Origin: Planctomycetota bacterium
Lineage (GTDB): Bacteria; Planctomycetota; B15-G4; JADJEK01
Direction of reading: 5' to 3'
Length of the DNA: 64,000 nucleotides
Assembly (NCBI GenBank): GCA_016213895.1
Contig: JACQZJ010000099.1
Span: 12,481-76,480, forward strand
The position numbers and the translations under genes are program-made. The notes beneath the pieces are model-generated. The model worked only from the letters and a program-made list of their open reading frames with translations, was not told where the DNA came from and searched no databases. Shown one piece after another: positions 10,520-51,487 of this stretch. Positions within the stretch are counted from its first letter, which is position 1; each line of letters begins with the position of its first letter.

Positions 10520-10933
<414 letters not shown>

Positions 10934-21437: not shown

Positions 21438-22424
21438 GTGGACCTCCCCGAGTTCGCCTGCTTCTCGCCGTTCATTCCCGCGGAGTGGGGCGCGGCGCAC
21501 GGCGTACGCCTCACGCGCCTGGCGCGGCCGCCCGCCGCCGCGCAGCGCGCGCCCCGCGAGGGGCGCTGCACCTACGCGGTGAGCGCCCTCGAGTTGGCTC
21601 AGGGCTTCCTCGCCGCGGGCGGCGCGGGCGCCGTCTTCACCACGTCGTGCGATCAGATGCGCCGCAGCGCGGAGCTGCTCGCGCCCGCGGAGCGCGTCTT
21701 CCTCTTCAACCTGCCGCACACCTGGGAGACGCCTCTGCCGCACCGCCTGTTCCGCCAGGAGCTCCTGCGCCTCTCCGGCTTCCTGTGCCGCGCCGGCGGG
21801 CGCGCCTTCGCGGAGGAGGATCTGGCCGCGGCCATGCGCCGCTTCGACGGCGCGCGGCGCGAGCTGCTCGCGCGCCGGGAGACGTCGCGCGCCGCGACTT
21901 TCGCGCGCCTGCTGCTCGCCTTCCACGAGCGCGCGGATGGTTCTCTGCCCGAAACCGCAGCGCAGGAGGCCCGGCCGGCGCGCGGGCCCGGCGTCGCGGT
22001 GCTGGGCGGCCCGTTGCTCGAGCGCGACCTCTGGCTGCTCGATCTGATCGAGGAGAGCGGCGGCCGCGTGGTGTTGAACGCCACGGACACGGGCGAGCGC
22101 ACCCTGCCGCGTTTCTTCGAGCGCAGCCGCCTCGTCGCCGATCCGCTGGGCGAGCTGGCGGACGCCTACTTCGGGCACATCCCCGACGTGTTTCGGCGGC
22201 CGAACAGCGAGCTGTTCCGCTACCTGGAGCGCGAACTCAGCGCGCGCGCGGCGCAGGGCGCGGTGCTGGTCATGCCCGTGTGGTGCGACTTCTGGCGCGC
22301 CGAGGCGGAGCGCCTGCGCGGCTGGCTGCCCTGTCCGCTCGCGGCCATCGACCTGGCGGACGACGCCAACGGACGGCAGCGGGCGCGCACGCGCATCCAG
22401 GCGCTGCTGGAGACCATCTCGTGA
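21438..22424 (+). CDS. HgdB/BcrC-like 2-hydroxyacyl-CoA dehydratase family subunit
   Basis: GRCTY, TSCDQMRR and WCDFW cysteines; C-terminal RTRIQALLE. Confidence 0.75.
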   Translation: MDLPEFACFSPFIPAEWGAAHGVRLTRLARPPAAAQRAPREGRCTYAVSALELAQGFLAAGGAGAVFTTSCDQMRRSAELLAPAERVFLFNLPHTWETPLPHRLFRQELLRLSGFLCRAGGRAFAEEDLAAAMRRFDGARRELLARRETSRAATFARLLLAFHERADGSLPETAAQEARPARGPGVAVLGGPLLERDLWLLDLIEESGGRVVLNATDTGERTLPRFFERSRLVADPLGELADAYFGHIPDVFRRPNSELFRYLERELSARAAQGAVLVMPVWCDFWRAEAERLRGWLPCPLAAIDLADDANGRQRARTRIQALLETIS

Positions 22425-23812
22425 TCTCGCCCTTTCCGCCGCAGTGCATCGGCGTGGCGGACTGGGATCTGCTGCGCGAACGCCTGCTCGGCCTGGGGCT
22501 CGTGGAGCCCTGGTACGGTGGGCCGCTCGGGCGCCACGTGGAGCAGGGCGACAGCCGCTTGCTCAGGCTCTCCTTCGACAACTCGCCGGCCGCGCTGCGC
22601 CTCTGGAACTTCCTGCTGAGCGAGGAGGAGCGGCTGTTCGCCGCGCGCGCGCAGGGGTATCGCATCGTCGGCACGATGAAGGACTTAGGGATCGTGCCGC
22701 TGCTTGCCTATGCGCTGCCGAAGGCGCTTGCCTTCTACCCGGACGGCGCCTGGTGGATTCCGTGCGTGATGGAGCTGTCCGCGGGCCTCTTGCGCTTCGC
22801 CGACGAGATCGGGCTGGACGAGTCGTTCTGCCCGGTGCGCGCCATGGTCGGCGCCTTCCTCGGCGAGGGGCACTTCCCGCGCCCCGACCTGGTTACGTGC
22901 AGCGTGGGCGCGACCTGCGACGACTTCTCCGCCATTGCGCAGCGGTTGAACGGCTTCGGCGTGCCCATTCTCTGGTGGGAGATGCCGCACGTGCGCGCGC
23001 CCGACCCGGGCGAGGAGGAGGCGCGGCTTCCCTCGGGCCAGACCGTGCCGGCCGCGCTCGTGCGCCAGGTGGAGGCGGAGTTCGCGCGCATCGCACGCCA
23101 CGTCGAGGAGGTGTGCGGCGAGGCGCTCACCGGCGAGCGCCTGGCCGCGGCCATCGAGCGGGCCAACGGCATCCGCGCGCAGCTCGAGGAGCTGCGCAGC
23201 GCCGTGTTTTTCGCGCCGCGGGCGCCGCTCCCTGCCCTCGAAGTGCTCATCGCCGAGATGCTCGCGATCCACTACTGCAGCGATCGCGACGAGACCGAGG
23301 CGGTGCTGGCCGATCTGCTTGCCGAGACGCGCCGCCGCGTGGCGTCAGGCCTCGGCTACGGCGACGGTTTCGAGGTGCGCGTCTTCTGGGTCAACCCGGT
23401 CGCCGATCTGACGGCGATGAACCTGCTCGAGAGCTGCGGCGGGCGCCTCTGCGGCACGGACTTCATGTTCTGCCACGCGCTCGACCCCATCCCCGTCGAT
23501 CGGCCGCCGCTCACCGCCCTGGCGCTCATGGCGCTCTCTGACCCGCTGGCGGGGACGGCGGCGGAGCGCGCGCGTCGCGTCGCCGCCGGCGCGCGCCGGT
23601 TCCGCGCCGAGGCCGTGCTCGTGTCCCGCATCCCGGGCGCGAGCCACTGCGCCTATGAGGGCGAGTTCATCGCCGAGCGCCTGCGCAGCGACCTGGGCAT
23701 TCCGGTGGCGGAGATAGAGGTGCCGCCTCTCAGCGACAGCGTGCGGCCGATCCTGCGCACGCGCATCGAGGCCGTGCTCGAGGCCGCGAGGAAACGACGG
23801 AGCGGAAGATGA
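22421..23812 (+). CDS. HgdA/BcrB-like 2-hydroxyacyl-CoA dehydratase family subunit
   Basis: GTG start overlapping the previous stop; FCPVRA, FPRPDL, ATCDD, SHCAYE and LRTRIEAVLE motifs. Confidence 0.75.
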   Translation: MISPFPPQCIGVADWDLLRERLLGLGLVEPWYGGPLGRHVEQGDSRLLRLSFDNSPAALRLWNFLLSEEERLFAARAQGYRIVGTMKDLGIVPLLAYALPKALAFYPDGAWWIPCVMELSAGLLRFADEIGLDESFCPVRAMVGAFLGEGHFPRPDLVTCSVGATCDDFSAIAQRLNGFGVPILWWEMPHVRAPDPGEEEARLPSGQTVPAALVRQVEAEFARIARHVEEVCGEALTGERLAAAIERANGIRAQLEELRSAVFFAPRAPLPALEVLIAEMLAIHYCSDRDETEAVLADLLAETRRRVASGLGYGDGFEVRVFWVNPVADLTAMNLLESCGGRLCGTDFMFCHALDPIPVDRPPLTALALMALSDPLAGTAAERARRVAAGARRFRAEAVLVSRIPGASHCAYEGEFIAERLRSDLGIPVAEIEVPPLSDSVRPILRTRIEAVLEAARKRRSGR

Positions 23813-24579
23813 TCGTCGCGGGCATCGACGGAGGGTCGCGCACCATCAAGGCTGCGCTCTTTGATACGAGCGCGGGCGAGGTGATCGGGACGGCGCTGCG
23901 CGACCAGGGCATCGATCAGAATCGCCTGGCGGAGGAGCTGCTCGACCAGACGCTCGCGCGGTGCGGCGTGCCGCGCGCGGATGTCACGGCGGTGCTCGCC
24001 ACCGGCTACGCGCGCCACCTCATGAACTTCGCCGGCCGCAAGGTGACCGAGATCACCTGCCAGGCGCGCGGTGTCTCCCACCTCTGTCCCGGGGCGCGCA
24101 GCGTCATCGAAATCGGCGGCCAGGACAGCAAGCTGGTCCGCCTCGAGGTGAACGGGACCGTGGACGACTTCGCCATGAACGACCGCTGCGCCGCGGGCAC
24201 CGGCCGCTTCCTGGAGATGATGGCCGGCCGGCTGGAGACGTCTCTCGCCGGGCTCGACCGCCTGGTGCGGCAAAGCCGCGAGCCGGCGGTGATCAGCAGC
24301 ATGTGCGTGGTCTTCGCCGAGACGGAGATCACTGGCCTGTTGTCGTGCGGCGTGGCGCCCGCGGAGATCGTGGTCGGCGTGGAGCGGGCCGTGGCGGAGC
24401 GCGTGGTGACCATGGCCGGGCGGAGGCTCATTGACCCGGTGGTCTTTACCGGGGGAGTCGCTTTGATTCCTGGCATGAGGGAGGCGCTGGAGCGCGCTCT
24501 GGAGCGGAGCGTGATGCTCTGTCCGATGGCGCAGCATAGTGGAGCGATAGGAGCAGCGTTGATTGCCGCGGAACAATAG
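23809..24579 (+). CDS. ATP-dependent [4Fe-4S] activase (HgdC/BadF-G/DCCP-R family)
   Basis: GIDGGSRTIK, TGYAR, IGGQDSK, MNDRCAAGTGRFLE and SMCVVFAE motifs. Confidence 0.92.
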   Translation: MIVAGIDGGSRTIKAALFDTSAGEVIGTALRDQGIDQNRLAEELLDQTLARCGVPRADVTAVLATGYARHLMNFAGRKVTEITCQARGVSHLCPGARSVIEIGGQDSKLVRLEVNGTVDDFAMNDRCAAGTGRFLEMMAGRLETSLAGLDRLVRQSREPAVISSMCVVFAETEITGLLSCGVAPAEIVVGVERAVAERVVTMAGRRLIDPVVFTGGVALIPGMREALERALERSVMLCPMAQHSGAIGAALIAAEQ

Positions 24580-25014: not shown

Positions 25015-25740
25015 ATGCTGCTACGCTTCATCTCGACTTCGCTCCTCGTGCTCGTCGTCTCGACGGCGAACGCTCCGGCCGCCACGCACAACGTCGGCCT
25101 GTCGGGACTCAACTTCGTTCCCAAGGACATCACCGTGGCCGAAGGGGATACGGTCGTCTGGACCCATTCGGGGGCCATGAGCCACACGGTGACCGAGGAC
25201 CTGGGGGCGTTCAATCAGCCCCTGAACTCGGCGAACCCGACGGTGACGGTGGTCTTCAGCACGGCGTTCTTGGCCGCAAACCCGCGCGTGAACAACCGCT
25301 ACGACTACCACTGCATCCCGCATCAGTCGTTCGGCATGGTCGGGTCGGTGACGGTGACGGTGGCGAGCGCCTGGACGGACATCGGCTTCGGGCTCGCCGG
25401 CTCGAGCGGGGTTCCGCAGCTCGCCGGCACCGGCACGCTCCAACCTTCGACCTCGGGGTCGCTCGACCTCACCAACGGCGCCGGCGGCGCGTTCGCCATC
25501 CTCTTCGTCACCGTCGGACCGAACACGCCGACGCCATTCTATGGCGGGGTGCTCGCCACCGTGCCCGTTTCGCTGCAGTTGCCTCTGACGCTGCCGGCCT
25601 CCGGGAACCTGCCCCTGCCGTTCGTGATGCCCGCGGGCGTCCCGCCGGGCCTCAAGCTGACCTGCCAGTGGGGCATCCAGGACGCCGGCGCGGTGCAGGG
25701 AGTTGCCCTCTCGAACGCGGTGCAGGCCACCACGCCTTGA
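25015..25740 (+). CDS. Secreted cupredoxin (plastocyanin/azurin-like) with C-terminal beta-rich domain
   Basis: Signal peptide; FVPKDITVAEGDTVVW, HTVT and YDYHCIPHQSFGM type-1 copper ligands. Confidence 0.85.
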   Translation: MLLRFISTSLLVLVVSTANAPAATHNVGLSGLNFVPKDITVAEGDTVVWTHSGAMSHTVTEDLGAFNQPLNSANPTVTVVFSTAFLAANPRVNNRYDYHCIPHQSFGMVGSVTVTVASAWTDIGFGLAGSSGVPQLAGTGTLQPSTSGSLDLTNGAGGAFAILFVTVGPNTPTPFYGGVLATVPVSLQLPLTLPASGNLPLPFVMPAGVPPGLKLTCQWGIQDAGAVQGVALSNAVQATTP

Positions 25741-25956: not shown

Positions 25957-27000
25957 TCAGAACTGCGGGTCGAGGAGCGTCATCACGGTCAGCGGTCCGA
26001 CGATGCCCGTGCCCTGCGGCGTGATGTAGCCCACCTGGAAGGGGACATCGAAGGCGGCCACGCCGATCGAGGGAATGTCGTTGAAGGCGACCGGGATGGA
26101 CAGCCCCGGGGCAGGCAGCGTTCCCAGGAGGAAGACGCCGCTGAACGGCGCGTCCAGGAGGAGGGTTCCGGTCACGCCGGGGAAATGCAGGAAGCCGGGG
26201 TGGAGCGACAGCAGCAGAAGGACGTAGTCCCCCTGCTCGCAGTCGATGCGGATCTGGCCCTGCTCGCCGCGACGCAGAGGCGAGCTGCCGGTGAGGTCGC
26301 GCAAGCCGATGTTGGTCGCGTCGTAGGCGAGGATGGTGCTGCCGGTCTGCTGGATCGGGGGGGCGTCCGGGCAACCCAGGTGGCCATGTCCGCCCGTGAC
26401 CGTGCAGTGGTAGAGCGCCACCGTCGCCCCGCCCGCGATGAGGCCGGGCGCCGGGTCGGTGCAGATGTTGTACCAGGGGCCCGTGGCCCATCCTCCGTCT
26501 GCGCCGGCGATGGTCGCGTGCACGAAGGAGACCTTGGAACAGGAGGAGATGAGGAGGCCGGGGATGGCGTCTGCGCCGTAGCCCCACTCGCCGTCGGCCC
26601 AGCCGGGCTTGCCGAAGGTGGCGCAGTCCTCGAAGCGCACGCTGCCCTGGCAGTCGCTGAGCTTGAACGAGCCCTCGATCCCCCGGATGGTGACCGCCCT
26701 GGTCGAGTTCAGGTTCTTGATCTCGTTGTACACCCAGGGGAGCAGGATGTCCTGGTGGTACGTCTCGACGTAAGCGTTCTTCTCGGCGACGAGGGTCAGG
26801 GACTTGTCGTTGATCGTGAACGGCCCGTAGAGGTAGTTCGGCGGCAGGTGCTTGATCAGGATCGTGTCGCCGTCCTGCGCCGCGTTCACCGCGGGCTGGA
26901 TCTGGGTGTAGTCGCCTCCGCCCTGAACGTCTACGACGATCACGGCGGCGGAGGCGGTTCCGGCCAGGAAGAATGCGAGCGCGAGCGGGAGGGTCTTCAT
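25957..27000 (-). CDS. Secreted protein with pectin-lyase-like N-terminus
   Basis: Signal peptide; GDYTQIQPAVNAAQDGDTILI beta-helix cap motif. Confidence 0.7.
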   Translation of the reverse strand: MKTLPLALAFFLAGTASAAVIVVDVQGGGDYTQIQPAVNAAQDGDTILIKHLPPNYLYGPFTINDKSLTLVAEKNAYVETYHQDILLPWVYNEIKNLNSTRAVTIRGIEGSFKLSDCQGSVRFEDCATFGKPGWADGEWGYGADAIPGLLISSCSKVSFVHATIAGADGGWATGPWYNICTDPAPGLIAGGATVALYHCTVTGGHGHLGCPDAPPIQQTGSTILAYDATNIGLRDLTGSSPLRRGEQGQIRIDCEQGDYVLLLLSLHPGFLHFPGVTGTLLLDAPFSGVFLLGTLPAPGLSIPVAFNDIPSIGVAAFDVPFQVGYITPQGTGIVGPLTVMTLLDPQF

Positions 27001-27114
27001 GGCTTCTGTTCCTTCTTGGACCTTCCGTCCCAGGGACGGTCACTACCCCCGGTCCGGCGGGCGCCGCCCGCCGCGACCGCTGGTCAGGATTCTAGCAACG
27101 CCGGACTCACCGCG

Positions 27115-28788
27115 CTACGGCATGATCTCCACTGGGTGGGCGTTCGTGGCGTAGTCGAGCGGCCAGTCCAGGACAGCCGCGAAGTGCATCTGCACGCCGA
27201 CCGCCGCGGGGCTGATCGGCCCGAGCGAGTCGAGCGTGGCCGTGGCGCGCCCCTGGGCGTCCAGCAGGCCGAAGAAGCTGGCGAACACCGGCGTGTTGGC
27301 GAAGATCAGCGTCAGGTTCATGAACGCGTCGTAGTTGAGCGGCAGGACCGTGGAGCCGAGCGGCGTGCCGGGCGAGGTGCCGCTCATGGATCCGAGGAGG
27401 TAGTACGGCCTGCCGGCATTCGCGCTGCCGGCGTCCAGCTCGAAGGCGACCTGGCCGCCGCCGGCTGCGGGCAGCACGGGCAGCGCGGCGTGCAGCGGCA
27501 GCCGTGCTCCCGAGAACACGAACGCCGAGCCGGTGCTGATGGCGCCGCCCGCCGTGGAACCCGGCGCGCCCGCGACGAAGTCCGGGCGGCCGTCGCCGTT
27601 GGCGTCGCCGGCCGCGGCAAGCGCCGAGCCGAGCAGATCGACCGCGGTCATGCCCTCGCACTGGTAGAGCGGCGCGTACGTCGCTCCGGAGAACACGTGG
27701 ACCATGCCGGCGTTCAGGCGGCCGCCCGGAGCGGCGCGCGGCTCGCCCACGGCGAAGTCCTTCATGCCGTCGCCGTCGACGTCGCCTGGGCAGCCGACCG
27801 AGGCGCCGAACTCGGCATAGGCTGCGTTGCCGAGGAGCGTGGCCAGGACCGCGCCGCTCGCGCCGGAGAGGATGTAGGCGGCCCCGGCATCCGTGGCAGA
27901 CCCGTTGTCCACCCCCGGCGCGCCCGTCAGGATGTCGTCCTTCCCGTCGCCGTTGACGTCGCCGATGCTGGCGAGCGCCTCGCCCATCCGGCCCCCGGTC
28001 AGCGTTCCCGAGGCCTTCCAGATCAGCGCGTGGGTCTTGCCGGAGTAGTTGTAGACGTGGCCGCCCACGTCGCGAGGCGCCGCGGTCATGTAGTCCGCGG
28101 TGCCGTCGCCATTGAGGTCGCCGGTCTTGGCCACGACCGACCCGTAGTAGCCGTACTGGTACTCGCCGTAGGTCTGCTTGAGCAGCGCGCAGTTCGCGCC
28201 CGAGTAGACGCGCACGTATCCCGTCATCGTGTTGTAGTGGGTCGCGCCGACGATGAAATCGCGCACGCCGTCGCCGTTCACGTCATCGAGCCCCGAGACC
28301 GAGGCTCCGAAGTGGTTGCCTCAGGACCCGCCCGGGGCGTAGAGCACCCCGCCGGTCAGGCCCGAGAAGACGTAGGCCATGCCGCAGTCGGTTCCGCCGG
28401 TGTCGTAGAGCGGCGCGCCCACGAGCAGCTCGGAACGGCCGTCGCCGTTGAGATCGCCCACGCAGGCCACGGCCGCGCCGAAGCGCGCGTAGGGCTGGGC
28501 GTACGACAGCTGGTGGATGAGCACTCCCGAGGCGCCGGAGTAGACCCGCGCCACCCCGTCGTTGATTCCCGTGACGTCGCGGTAGGGCACGCCCACGATC
28601 ACGTCGGCGACGCCGTCTCCATCCACGTCGAAGCCGCCGCCTACCGCCGCGCCGGCCTGGTCGTTCAGCATGTCGCCGTCGAAGCGCGCCGCGAGAGTCT
28701 GCGCGTGCGCCGGGAGCGCGTACAGCGCCGCGAGCGCGGCGAAGGCCGCCAGTCTTCCCACGGCGGCAAGAGGAGTATTGCAGCGCAT
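27115..28788 (-). CDS. Secreted FG-GAP (integrin alpha-like) repeat protein with in-frame TGA at 28321-28323
   Basis: The 28321..28848 and 27115..28281 ORFs are in one frame joined by ...YAPGGS*GNHFGASVSGLDDVNGDG...; about seven DxNGDG..D..VGAP repeats. Confidence 0.8.
28288..28307 (-). promoter_or_regulatory. SECIS-like hairpin downstream of FG-GAP TGA
   Basis: gagcctcg-gtct-cggggctc 8-bp stem starting 13 nt after TGA, with GGT 20 nt after TGA. Confidence 0.45.
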
Positions 28789-28993
28789 TTCCGTGCTCCT
28801 TGCTCCGCTCCCGGCAGCTTTGCCTTCCGGTCGCGGCTCCGTCTCCATCAGACCTGAGGACGCGCTAGAGGATACCGCGAGGTTGCGGCCCGCGTCAAAC
28901 GCTCGCCGGCGTCACGAGGCGGTCCGGCCCTCTCCGGAGCGGAGATACGGCGCGCCTTCTCTCCTGGTAGCGTAACCGGCCGCGGAGGAGCCG

Positions 28994-29785
28994 ATGCCGT
29001 TTGCCAGCATCCTGTTCGATGTCGATGAGCGCGGGATCGCCCGTATCGTCCTGAACCGGCCCGAGCGCCGCAACGCCATGACGCCCGAGATGGGCGCCGA
29101 GGTGCGCCAGGCGGTGGAGCGCGTCAACACCGACGACGCCGCGCGCGTGGCCGTCATCAGCGGCGCGGGCGGGGCGTTCTGCTCCGGCGCGGACCTCGAG
29201 AGCCTGGCGCGCGAGGCCGGCCTCAGGAAGGACGGCGCCGGCCTGGGCGGAGAGGGCAGCTTCTACCGCTCGTTCCTGTCGATCGCGTCGCTGCGCGTGC
29301 CATCCATCGCCGCGATCAACGGCCACGCCGTTGGCGCCGGGCTGTGCTTCGCGCTCGGTGCCGACCTGCGCGTCATGCATGAACGCGCCAAGGCGGGCAT
29401 GACGTTCGTGCGACTCGGCATCCACCCGGGAATGGGAGGGACGTGGAACCTGCCGCGCCTGGTCGGGCCCGCGGCCGCCGCCGACTTGCTCTACAGCGGG
29501 CGGCTGCTCGGTGCGGCCGAGGCGCTCTCCATCGGACTGGTGAACCGCGTGGCGGGCGATGACTTCGACGAGGTCGTGGGGGAGCTGGCCGCGCAGATCG
29601 CCGCCTGCGCCCCCCTGGCCGTGCGCGCTCTGAAGGAGTCGCTGCGGGACGGCGCGCTGCGCTCGCTCGAGGAGGCGCTCGACGTGGAGGCGCGGGCGCA
29701 GGCCATGACCTTCCGCACGGCGGACGCCGCCGAGGGGCTCGCGGCCCTGCTGGAGAAGCGGCCGCCGCGCTTCCAGGGGCGGTGA
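28994..29785 (+). CDS. Enoyl-CoA hydratase/isomerase family protein
   Basis: LNRPERRNA, FCSGADL, AAINGHAVGAG and GIHPGMGG motifs. Confidence 0.92.
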   Translation: MPFASILFDVDERGIARIVLNRPERRNAMTPEMGAEVRQAVERVNTDDAARVAVISGAGGAFCSGADLESLAREAGLRKDGAGLGGEGSFYRSFLSIASLRVPSIAAINGHAVGAGLCFALGADLRVMHERAKAGMTFVRLGIHPGMGGTWNLPRLVGPAAAADLLYSGRLLGAAEALSIGLVNRVAGDDFDEVVGELAAQIAACAPLAVRALKESLRDGALRSLEEALDVEARAQAMTFRTADAAEGLAALLEKRPPRFQGR

Positions 29786-33318: not shown

Positions 33319-34344
33319 TTGGGAAGACGCCGGGGCAAGCCCCATGACCGCCTGCTGCGCGCGGTGCTGCGCAGTCCCGCTGATGCGCGCGCGGTGCTCA
33401 GGGAGTTCTTGCCCGCGAAAGTCCGCGACCTGTGCAGCTTCGATTCCCTGCGACGCGAGCCCGGCAGCTTCGTGGACGAGAGGCTGCGGGCGCGCTTCTC
33501 GGATGCCCTGTTCAGCGTGCGCGCGCGCGACGAGGATCTTCTCGTCTACGTGCTGCTGGAGCACGTGCGCGTGGCGCCACGGCGGCTGCCCTTCTTCGTG
33601 CTGCGCTACGTGACGCGGATCCTGGAGCAGCACGCCGAGGAGCATCCGCACGACGACGCGCTGCCGCGCGTGGTGGGGCTCGTGGTCCATCAGGGGGACG
33701 CTCCATACCGCGGGGCACTCCGCATGGCCGACCTCTATCCCTCGGGTGCGGGCAGCTCCCTCGCGCGTTTCACGCCGGAGTTCGACTTCGTCCTCGTCGA
33801 TCTAGCCCTGATTCCGGATGAGGCGTTGCTCGGCTTGCACGTCCTGGGGGCGGCCTTCGCCGCGGCGGCGCTGCTTCTGATGAAGCACGTGGGAGATCCG
33901 GAGCTCTCGCGGCGCCTGGAGGCTTGGATGGGCGTGCTGCGCGCGGCGGCCGGAGGCTCGCGGCGCGCGGCGCTGATGCGTCTGCTATCCTATGTGGTCG
34001 CCGCGGCCCAAGACGAAGCCGCGCCGCGGGCGCTGTTGGTTGCCGCGCCGGAGGCCGAGGAGGTGTACATGACCCTTGCGAAACGCTGGCTGCAAGAAGG
34101 CCGCACCGAAGGCCGTGCCGAGGGCCGCACCGAAGGCCGTGCCGAGGGCCGCACCGAGGGCCGCACCGAGGGGGAGCGTCTGGCCCAGCGCCGCGCGCTC
34201 GCACGCCTGCTCGAGTCGCGGTTCGGTCCGCTGGACGCCGCGGTTCGCGCCCAACTGGACGCGGCCGAGACCAGGACGCTTGAGGCGTGGTTCGACCGGG
34301 CCCTGGCCGCGAGATCCCTCGAGGAGATCCTCGCTTCCCCGTGA
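33319..34344 (+). CDS. Rpn/YhgA-like recombination-promoting nuclease (Transposase_31 family)
   Basis: PHDRLLR, GSFVDERLR..SDALF, VYVLLEH, MTLAKRW, EGRxEG repeats and RFG...LEAW tail. Confidence 0.88.
   Translation: MGRRRGKPHDRLLRAVLRSPADARAVLREFLPAKVRDLCSFDSLRREPGSFVDERLRARFSDALFSVRARDEDLLVYVLLEHVRVAPRRLPFFVLRYVTRILEQHAEEHPHDDALPRVVGLVVHQGDAPYRGALRMADLYPSGAGSSLARFTPEFDFVLVDLALIPDEALLGLHVLGAAFAAAALLLMKHVGDPELSRRLEAWMGVLRAAAGGSRRAALMRLLSYVVAAAQDEAAPRALLVAAPEAEEVYMTLAKRWLQEGRTEGRAEGRTEGRAEGRTEGRTEGERLAQRRALARLLESRFGPLDAAVRAQLDAAETRTLEAWFDRALAARSLEEILASP
34069..34344 (+). CDS. Putative intragenic small Rpn C-terminal protein (Rpn-S)
   Basis: In-frame ATG preceded by a GAGGAGGT Shine-Dalgarno inside rpn. 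Confidence 0.6.
   Translation: MTLAKRWLQEGRTEGRAEGRTEGRAEGRTEGRTEGERLAQRRALARLLESRFGPLDAAVRAQLDAAETRTLEAWFDRALAARSLEEILASP
34096..34167 (+). repeat. 12-bp tandem repeat x6 encoding EGR(T/A)
   Basis: ga(a/g)ggccg(cacc/tgcc) repeated six times. Confidence 0.9.
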
Positions 34345-50683: not shown

Positions 50684-50758
50684 GGCGTTGACTCCTGATC
50701 GTACCGGTCGCGGGGCGCTCGAGCGCTCCGCCGGCCCATCAGCATAGCGCGGCCGGCC

Positions 50759-51487
50759 TCAGCGCGCCGCGCGCGCGGCCGCGAGGATCTCGTCCGGCGT
50801 GGCGCGCGCCCCCACGTTGTCGGTCGCGTGCTTCCACTTCACCGTGCCGTGCTCGTCCACCAGGAAGAGGGTGGCGTAGAAGACGTCCGAGAGGTCCGGC
50901 CCAGCCTTCCTGTGCCGCAGGCCGAGCGCGTCCATGAGCCTCCCGCGCTCGTCGCTGACCACGGGGAAGGTCAGGCCCAGGCGCTCGGCCTTCTTGCGCG
51001 CCGTGCTCGCGCCGTCGCTGCTCGCCGCCACGACGGAGATCCCCGCCGCGCGCAGGGCGTCTTGCTGCTCGTGGAGCCGGACCAGCTCCGCGACGCAAGA
51101 AGGTCACCAGAAGCCGCGGAACAGCACGATGAGCTGCAGTCCGCCCGGCGCCGCGGCGCCGGCGGCGACCAGCCCGCCGCTCGTGGCGTCGGCCAGCTCG
51201 AGACGCGGGAAGGCGCTTCCCACCCCCGGCCCCGCGGGCCGCCCCGCGCCGTAGTCATGTAGCACGGCGAGGGCGAAGACGAAGACGGCGGTGTACAGCA
51301 AGGGGACGAGCGCGGCGAGCCGCACCGCCAGGTGGCCGGAGTTCCTCAGGTGGAGAAGGGCCAGCACCGCGCAGAGCAGAAGCAGCGCGTAGATCGGAAG
51401 CGGGTGGCGGTCGAGCGCGCACCAGCGCAGCCCGACGTAGGCGTAGGTGGTGGCGGCGGCGACGAGGAGCGCGGCGATCAGGTACAC
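50759..51487 (-). CDS. Membrane-anchored AhpC/TSA (peroxiredoxin-like) selenoprotein, Sec at TGA 51104-51106
   Basis: GTG start with GGAGG RBS; three TM helices; LFRGFW-TGA-PSCVAEL forms a UxxC motif; the frame continues to the thioredoxin-fold end. Confidence 0.88.
51070..51092 (-). promoter_or_regulatory. Bacterial SECIS element
   Basis: cgcggagct-GGT-ccggctccacg hairpin with GGT 20 nt after the UGA. Confidence 0.75.

Follow-up and report, generated by a model that had tools for sequence, protein, structure and literature searches.

An in-frame UGA followed by a SECIS-like hairpin marks a probable selenoprotein among the FG-GAP propellers of a Planctomycetota bacterium

We focused on an FG-GAP β-propeller gene that carries a TGA codon within its reading frame. 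The gene lies in a 64,000-nucleotide stretch of a Planctomycetota genome (contig JACQZJ010000099.1 of assembly GCA_016213895.1), which we refer to as the window. On the basis of sequence comparison, we consider it likely that UGA156 is decoded as selenocysteine (Sec), with SelB and a SECIS element, and that the Sec forms a pair with a cysteine on the upper face of the propeller. The mechanism is most likely ordinary bacterial Sec insertion. What is new would be the host protein and, with it, a selenoprotein family. An initial annotation of the window had proposed the selenoprotein. The Sec machinery of the genome, the TGA of an orthologue, the ends of fragmentary homologues, independent assemblies and a hairpin of the genome's own type all favour that proposal. 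The relevant features are as follows.

28788..27115, minus strand: FG-GAP propeller gene; 557 codons and a TAG stop, with the single in-frame TGA read through
28699..28788, minus strand: probable signal peptide, codons 1–30 (...ALPAHA, then QTL...), judged by eye
28384..28386, minus strand: codon for Cys135 (GGTDCG), proposed partner of Sec156; invariant in the clade
28323..28321, minus strand: in-frame TGA, codon 156, proposed Sec codon; seen in the sequence, in genome G001 and in contig X3
28288..28307, minus strand: core SECIS-like hairpin, GAGCCUCG-GUCU-CGGGGCUC, starting 14 nt after the UGA; from folding and models
28286..28310, minus strand: possible extension of the hairpin by a U-A and a C-G pair under a bulged G, so that it would start 11 nt after the UGA; by eye

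The product would be one exported protein of 557 residues, with a seven-bladed, integrin-α-like propeller and a C-terminal domain shared with paralogues. Pfam FG-GAP (PF01839) matches in six stretches, with a score of 148.6 bits (cut-off 22.1; E 3e-44). FG-GAP_3 (PF13517) is a further Pfam match, and a comparison with NCBIfam gave only one sub-threshold domain match. By eye and by motif we counted seven blades, with a DxNGDG-type motif in each. The blades are followed by a domain of about 130 residues that is common to many paralogues in the same genome. At the N-terminus, the QTL that follows the hydrophobic stretch is conserved in all seven members of the clade. Between genomes G000 and G001 the codons of the probable signal peptide (1–30) evolve neutrally (dN/dS 1.0). 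Integrin α propellers, of which the αV, αIIb and α4 head pieces have been solved, have the same repeat signature as the product, and likewise DxNGDG calcium-loop motifs. The αV and αIIb propellers matched the product with E-values of 3e-16 to 4e-15. This class has a large expansion of FG-GAP genes; we found 76 matches to the propeller protein in its own genome and 14–94 in each relative, many with the same C-terminal domain of about 130 residues.

The initial annotation reported an in-frame TGA, at codon 156 of 557, and quoted the letters after it. Both are exactly as reported, and no other TGA is in frame. It also asked for verification against reads, and for this we aligned Logan contigs from four runs to the gene. 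None of the aligned contigs disagrees at the TGA. Contig X3, which comes from a different sample in the same study, shows no difference across it. Contigs X5 and X9, from two other studies, cover the gene without gaps (71 and 190 differences, respectively). Of the sequencing runs listed as containing the gene, none is recorded as RNA, which carries no weight for or against expression. We then compared the gene with that of G001, a species representative in the same genus, the orthologue of which is 87% identical. This has TGA at the same codon, rather than another residue or an extra codon, together with a near-identical hairpin. The 25 codons that follow differ by a single synonymous change. 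By the method of Nei and Gojobori, dN/dS against G001 is 0.215 for codons 31–155 and 0.198 for codons 157–557 (dS 0.31–0.33). The part 3′ of the TGA is therefore translated protein to the same degree as the part 5′ of it. No other stop or frameshift occurs across these 401 codons. From such comparisons, we regard a sequencing error and a fresh pseudogene as excluded.

It had been cautioned that the blade with the TGA is one residue shorter than its siblings, and that a deletion of 3 nt could have created the stop. The blade is indeed shorter by one residue. However, the TGA-less outgroup homologue L026 has the same shorter loop, which excludes that the stop arose by a recent deletion. We also rejected a changed genetic code, with UGA read as Gly or Trp, because TGA ends thousands of coding frames in this genome (2586 terminator-like TGAs).

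The orthologue in G001 is the only one read as DNA; five more distant members are known as protein fragments alone. In a collection of 5.8 billion proteins, the gene is present only in pieces. C-terminal calls of 388 aa exist for its own genome and for G001. In addition, there are six further N-terminal calls of 150–156 aa, with identities of 95, 88, 63, 61, 59 and 58%. All six end exactly at ...GGS or ...SGS, which is the site of the TGA. One of these clusters is that of G001 itself, and the name that the source gives to one of the fragments does not include "partial". Four distant fragments are only about 53% identical to each other and hence represent deep lineages. For one fragment, P0124, there is a collinear C-terminal partner of 395 aa, P0152 (56% identical), which starts eight residues after the stop. 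Both are encoded on contigs of 5102 bases. A C-terminal partner was seen for P0124 only; the C-terminal piece P0080 (48% identical) is unpaired. We also looked for orthologues at the DNA level. The search of genome contigs returned a single locus, L055. Among 80 loci listed from metagenome contigs using patterns of the C-terminal domain there was no orthologue. All were similar at the level of paralogues, with no segment above 42% identity and E-values no better than 1e-37. The orthologue was present in G001 only, both among 42 genomes covering the whole class and order and in two phylum samples of 401 and 378 genomes, which largely overlap. None was found in viral contigs.

Confirmation of selABCD in the genome had been suggested as a check. 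All four components are present, each twice. Briefly, there are two copies each of selA, selB and selD, above curated cut-offs, and two tRNA-Sec genes with anticodon TCA, identified by ARAGORN. One of the two selD copies has a TGA of its own. The contamination of the assembly is given as 0.74%, and G001 also has two copies of selA. One tRNA-Sec gene, selA and selB lie in a row (C97:39338-42868). The second selA adjoins the TGA-containing selD (C64:35677-38037). The second selB, the second selD and the second tRNA-Sec gene are elsewhere (C82:10348-11520, C88:46075-47001, C214:11416-11509).

The genome also provides selenoprotein genes for comparison. One is in the window and had been called a clear selenoprotein. 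It is of a known kind, Redoxin/AhpC-TSA with the motif FW-U-PSC, and the Pfam Redoxin match (E 8e-18) spans the TGA.

51104..51106, minus strand: Sec codon of the Redoxin/AhpC-TSA gene (gene region 50700-51400; FW-U-PSC); from the Pfam Redoxin match
51073..51089, minus strand: SECIS hairpin of the Redoxin gene, GGAGCUG-GUC-CGGCUCC, with GGU 20 nt after the UGA

We used this gene as a control for the comparison of G000 with G001 (L141). The TGA is kept, the hairpin is invariant and the codons that follow diverge. Between the TGA and the hairpin, the spacer has two synonymous changes. The Redoxin hairpin has the loop GUC, 21 nt after the UGA. That of selD also has the loop GUC, 27 nt after the UGA. 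A glutaredoxin gene has the loop AGUUC at 22 nt. This last gene (C179:15178-15408; L140:479-709, plus strand) encodes 77 residues (Pfam PF00462), with U-PPC replacing CPPC. A further candidate selenoprotein is encoded on contig C20, with a TGA at 10604 on the minus strand (L139:613-1425, minus strand). This would be an exported protein of no known family, with the context ...SGGC-U-GPKK... just after the signal peptide and a hairpin with the loop GGUGC 21 nt after the TGA.

In the FG-GAP gene, the GGU of the hairpin is at 28300..28298. The initial annotation had placed a GGT 20 nt after the TGA in this gene and in the gene with TGA at 51106..51104, each within a stem. The distance is correct in both and both stems fold. 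The FG-GAP hairpin has a stem of 8 bp and the loop GUCU, or 7 bp and the loop GGUCUC, with a folding energy of −14.7 kcal/mol. The core is identical in G001. The additional pairs of the extended hairpin are present in the centroid of a 39-nt fold. Here, the sole difference between G000 and G001 is C28309 to U, which keeps the pair as U-G. The stability is unremarkable for a genome of 71% G+C (z = −1.2 for 39 nt and −0.1 for 60 nt). Rfam gave no match in 27900..28800 at E up to 1. There is no terminator-like site in 27000..29000, and an intrinsic terminator as the role of the hairpin was rejected. The stem was also said to depend on GGA and GGG glycine codons, where sister repeats use GGC. Within the gene this stands: the FG glycine is encoded by GGA here, versus GGC in five other blades and GGG in one. 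However, L026 also has GGA, with no TGA. Genome-wide, 8.5% of glycine codons are GGA and 18% are GGG.

How specific is this hairpin? The consensus bSECIS model sets four constraints, including a spacing of 16–37 and an energy below −7.5 kcal/mol (legend to Fig. 2 of PMC13188914). The FG-GAP hairpin agrees with all four, with an 8-bp stem, the loop GUCU, a spacing of 21 nt and −13.1 to −14.7 kcal/mol. However, the same is true of 492 of the 2586 ordinary terminator-like TGA stops in the genome (19%), and because of this the published model is unspecific and weak evidence here. We therefore also wrote a genome-specific rule, for which the genome's SelD, Redoxin and glutaredoxin genes were the sole source. 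The rule requires a stem of at least 7 bp and a loop that begins [AG]?GU[CU], 20–28 nt after the UGA. The FG-GAP gene conforms, as does one of the 2586 terminator-like TGAs; the rule was written after the FG-GAP hairpin had been seen, so this last count is indicative and not a clean test. For all TGA trinucleotides in the genome, the count is 190 of 96044. When the rule is applied to the 187 TGAs flanked on either side by coding signal, only those of the Redoxin and FG-GAP genes satisfy it.

We next considered the proposed partner of Sec156. A cysteine in a TDCG motif had been noted 20 residues upstream of the TGA. It is present, as residue 135, but lies 21 residues before the TGA. Cys135 is kept in all seven fragments that end at the stop. 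Across 404 fetched proteins, the motif G[TS]DCG is confined to the seven members and the window's own translations. In 57 full-length paralogues column 135 is most often Ala (37 sequences) and never Cys. Only 1 of 18 homologues from relatives has an equivalent of Cys135, and this is the outgroup L026. Encoded by G003, L026 is the nearest homologue lacking the TGA (37–39% identical) and has Gly (GGC) at the Sec site. Hence, Cys135 does not occur exclusively together with the stop. At the Sec position itself, Cys was found in 0 of the 57 aligned paralogues and 0 of the 18 homologues. Similarly, the arrangement DCG...xCG occurs in none of the 404 proteins or 2736 blades. Most bacterial selenoprotein families include Cys forms, according to the introduction of PMC12013277. 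We searched 1.84 billion representatives for such forms using residues 96–215. The matches were swamped by giant multi-repeat proteins and so the absence of Cys homologues is not proven.

From the repeat topology of integrin-type propellers, we take residue 135 to be in the loop before the GxAYVF strand and residue 156 to be in the one that precedes the FG strand, both at the upper face. In integrins, this face of the propeller binds ligands. Residue 156 aligns with a Cys of the integrin αV chain in the construct 4um8_A, which is presumably an engineered surface residue at the α/β interface. Sec156 and Cys135, if they lie in neighbouring upper-face loops as assigned here, could form a selenylsulfide. 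Such a bond is plausible but unproven. It might serve as a redox-active site or bind a metal, either in the periplasm or extracellularly.

Other interpretations of the TGA were weighed against selenocysteine. The codon could be read through without Sec, by a near-cognate tRNA or under another recoding signal, with inefficient insertion of one of the standard amino acids, perhaps as a means of regulation. This would account equally for a conserved in-frame stop with selection downstream; the Gly at the site in the outgroup and the Cys homologues that were not found also fit. We nevertheless think it improbable. The Sec system of the genome is complete and even duplicated, and in its spacing and GU loop the hairpin matches those of the SelD, Redoxin and glutaredoxin genes. 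Furthermore, the conserved, clade-specific Cys 21 residues upstream fits a Sec–Cys pair, and read-through by a changed code is at odds with TGA being an ordinary stop here. A little less probable again is that the TGA is a true stop of a split gene, giving an exported two-blade fragment of 155 residues and a separately initiated piece of 390 residues. Every public gene call examined divides the gene in this way, into ORFs of 155 and about 390 residues. Moreover, the split point is conserved and purifying selection acts on both parts, as it would for a functional gene pair. Against this, the 13 codons between the TGA and the next in-frame start stay conserved in G000 and G001. In addition, the restart points chosen by gene callers vary among lineages (residue 165, 170 or 175), so no internal start is conserved. 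The second piece would begin in the middle of a blade without a signal peptide, and so probably could not join an exported partner. A split gene also leaves a hairpin of the same type as the Sec hairpins of the genome to be explained.

Least probable of all, and very much so, is a pseudogene or an error of assembly or sequencing. In its favour, the TGA is the only defect in the repeat protein, and the genome has dozens of FG-GAP paralogues (76 matches to the propeller protein). Yet independent assemblies agree, and the stop is at the same site in lineages only 53–63% identical. The dN/dS of 0.20 after the stop, and the 401 codons free of further stops and frameshifts, also oppose it. Hence, we favour insertion of selenocysteine at codon 156.

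If so, SelB with Sec-tRNA(Sec) would be recruited by the hairpin that starts 11–14 nt after the UGA, with GGU in the loop 20 nt downstream. The paradigm for bacterial genes of this kind is E. coli fdhF, with a GGUC loop and a spacing of 11 nt to the minimal hairpin. As in other SelB/SECIS genes, the FG-GAP gene has an in-frame UGA with a hairpin directly downstream in the coding sequence (here a loop of 4–6 nt beginning G-G/U, a stem of 7–8 bp and a spacing of 20–21 nt), and selA, selB, selD and selC are present in the genome. The difference is in the host, a β-propeller and not an oxidoreductase or formate dehydrogenase, for which Cys homologues were not found. There is also a likeness to the genome's own Redoxin, SelD and glutaredoxin genes. 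These presumably use the same SelB, and have arms of the type GGAGC.../...GCUC with GUC in the loop. However, their products belong to well-known families, and the Sec stands for the first Cys of a redox motif, CxxC or GCxK. In the FG-GAP product, a surface loop would carry the Sec, and the candidate partner Cys is 21 residues distant.

Almost all bacterial selenoproteins are oxidoreductases, with Sec in place of a catalytic Cys. To our knowledge, FG-GAP has not been described as a redox fold. Among the papers listed by full-text literature searches, none links selenocysteine to propellers of the FG-GAP, VCBS or integrin type. The terms FG-GAP, integrin, propeller and Planctomycet are absent from the main texts of PMC12013277, PMC13188914 and PMC13326102. 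If the Sec reading is right and Cys relatives are indeed lacking, this secreted integrin-like propeller, with Sec in one of its surface loops, would add to the range of folds and compartments that use selenium. More speculatively, this may be a Sec-only family without Cys forms. A redox-active selenylsulfide on the ligand-binding face of exported FG-GAP propellers could then make a redox-switchable receptor of an adhesion-type scaffold, or represent a new extracytoplasmic selenoenzyme, possibly served by one of the two parallel SelA/SelB/tRNA-Sec sets. We offer this tentatively and think it rather less likely than not to hold in full.

The case also exposes a systematic annotation error, in which public gene calls cut the gene in two. 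Homology-based selenoprotein finders rely on Sec/Cys pairs, as described in PMC12013277. By design, such tools would miss families that have no Cys relatives. For groundwater Planctomycetota, the peptide GGS-U-GNHFGASV provides a concrete mass-spectrometric target.

FG-GAP paralogues of another family, from genome G015 of the same order, also contain a TGA, at a different place (L028 on C17, at 1227, and L053 on C95, at 1802). The context, ...ETPL-U-CIEYGGD..., includes a U-C dyad and is identical in both copies, and G015 has selA. No hairpin was found within 37 nt of either TGA, and we excluded both genes from the support for a Sec reading of the FG-GAP gene.

We saw no functional link between the propeller gene and its neighbours. 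Within the window, a 2-hydroxyglutaryl-CoA dehydratase D-component with a BadF/BcrA-type ATPase is encoded at 21485-24579 (plus strand), and a cupredoxin of the plastocyanin/azurin family at 25015-25740 (plus strand). A YhgA-like transposase gene lies at 33319-34344 (plus strand). The enoyl-CoA hydratase gene at 28994-29785 (plus strand) adjoins the propeller gene in G001 too.
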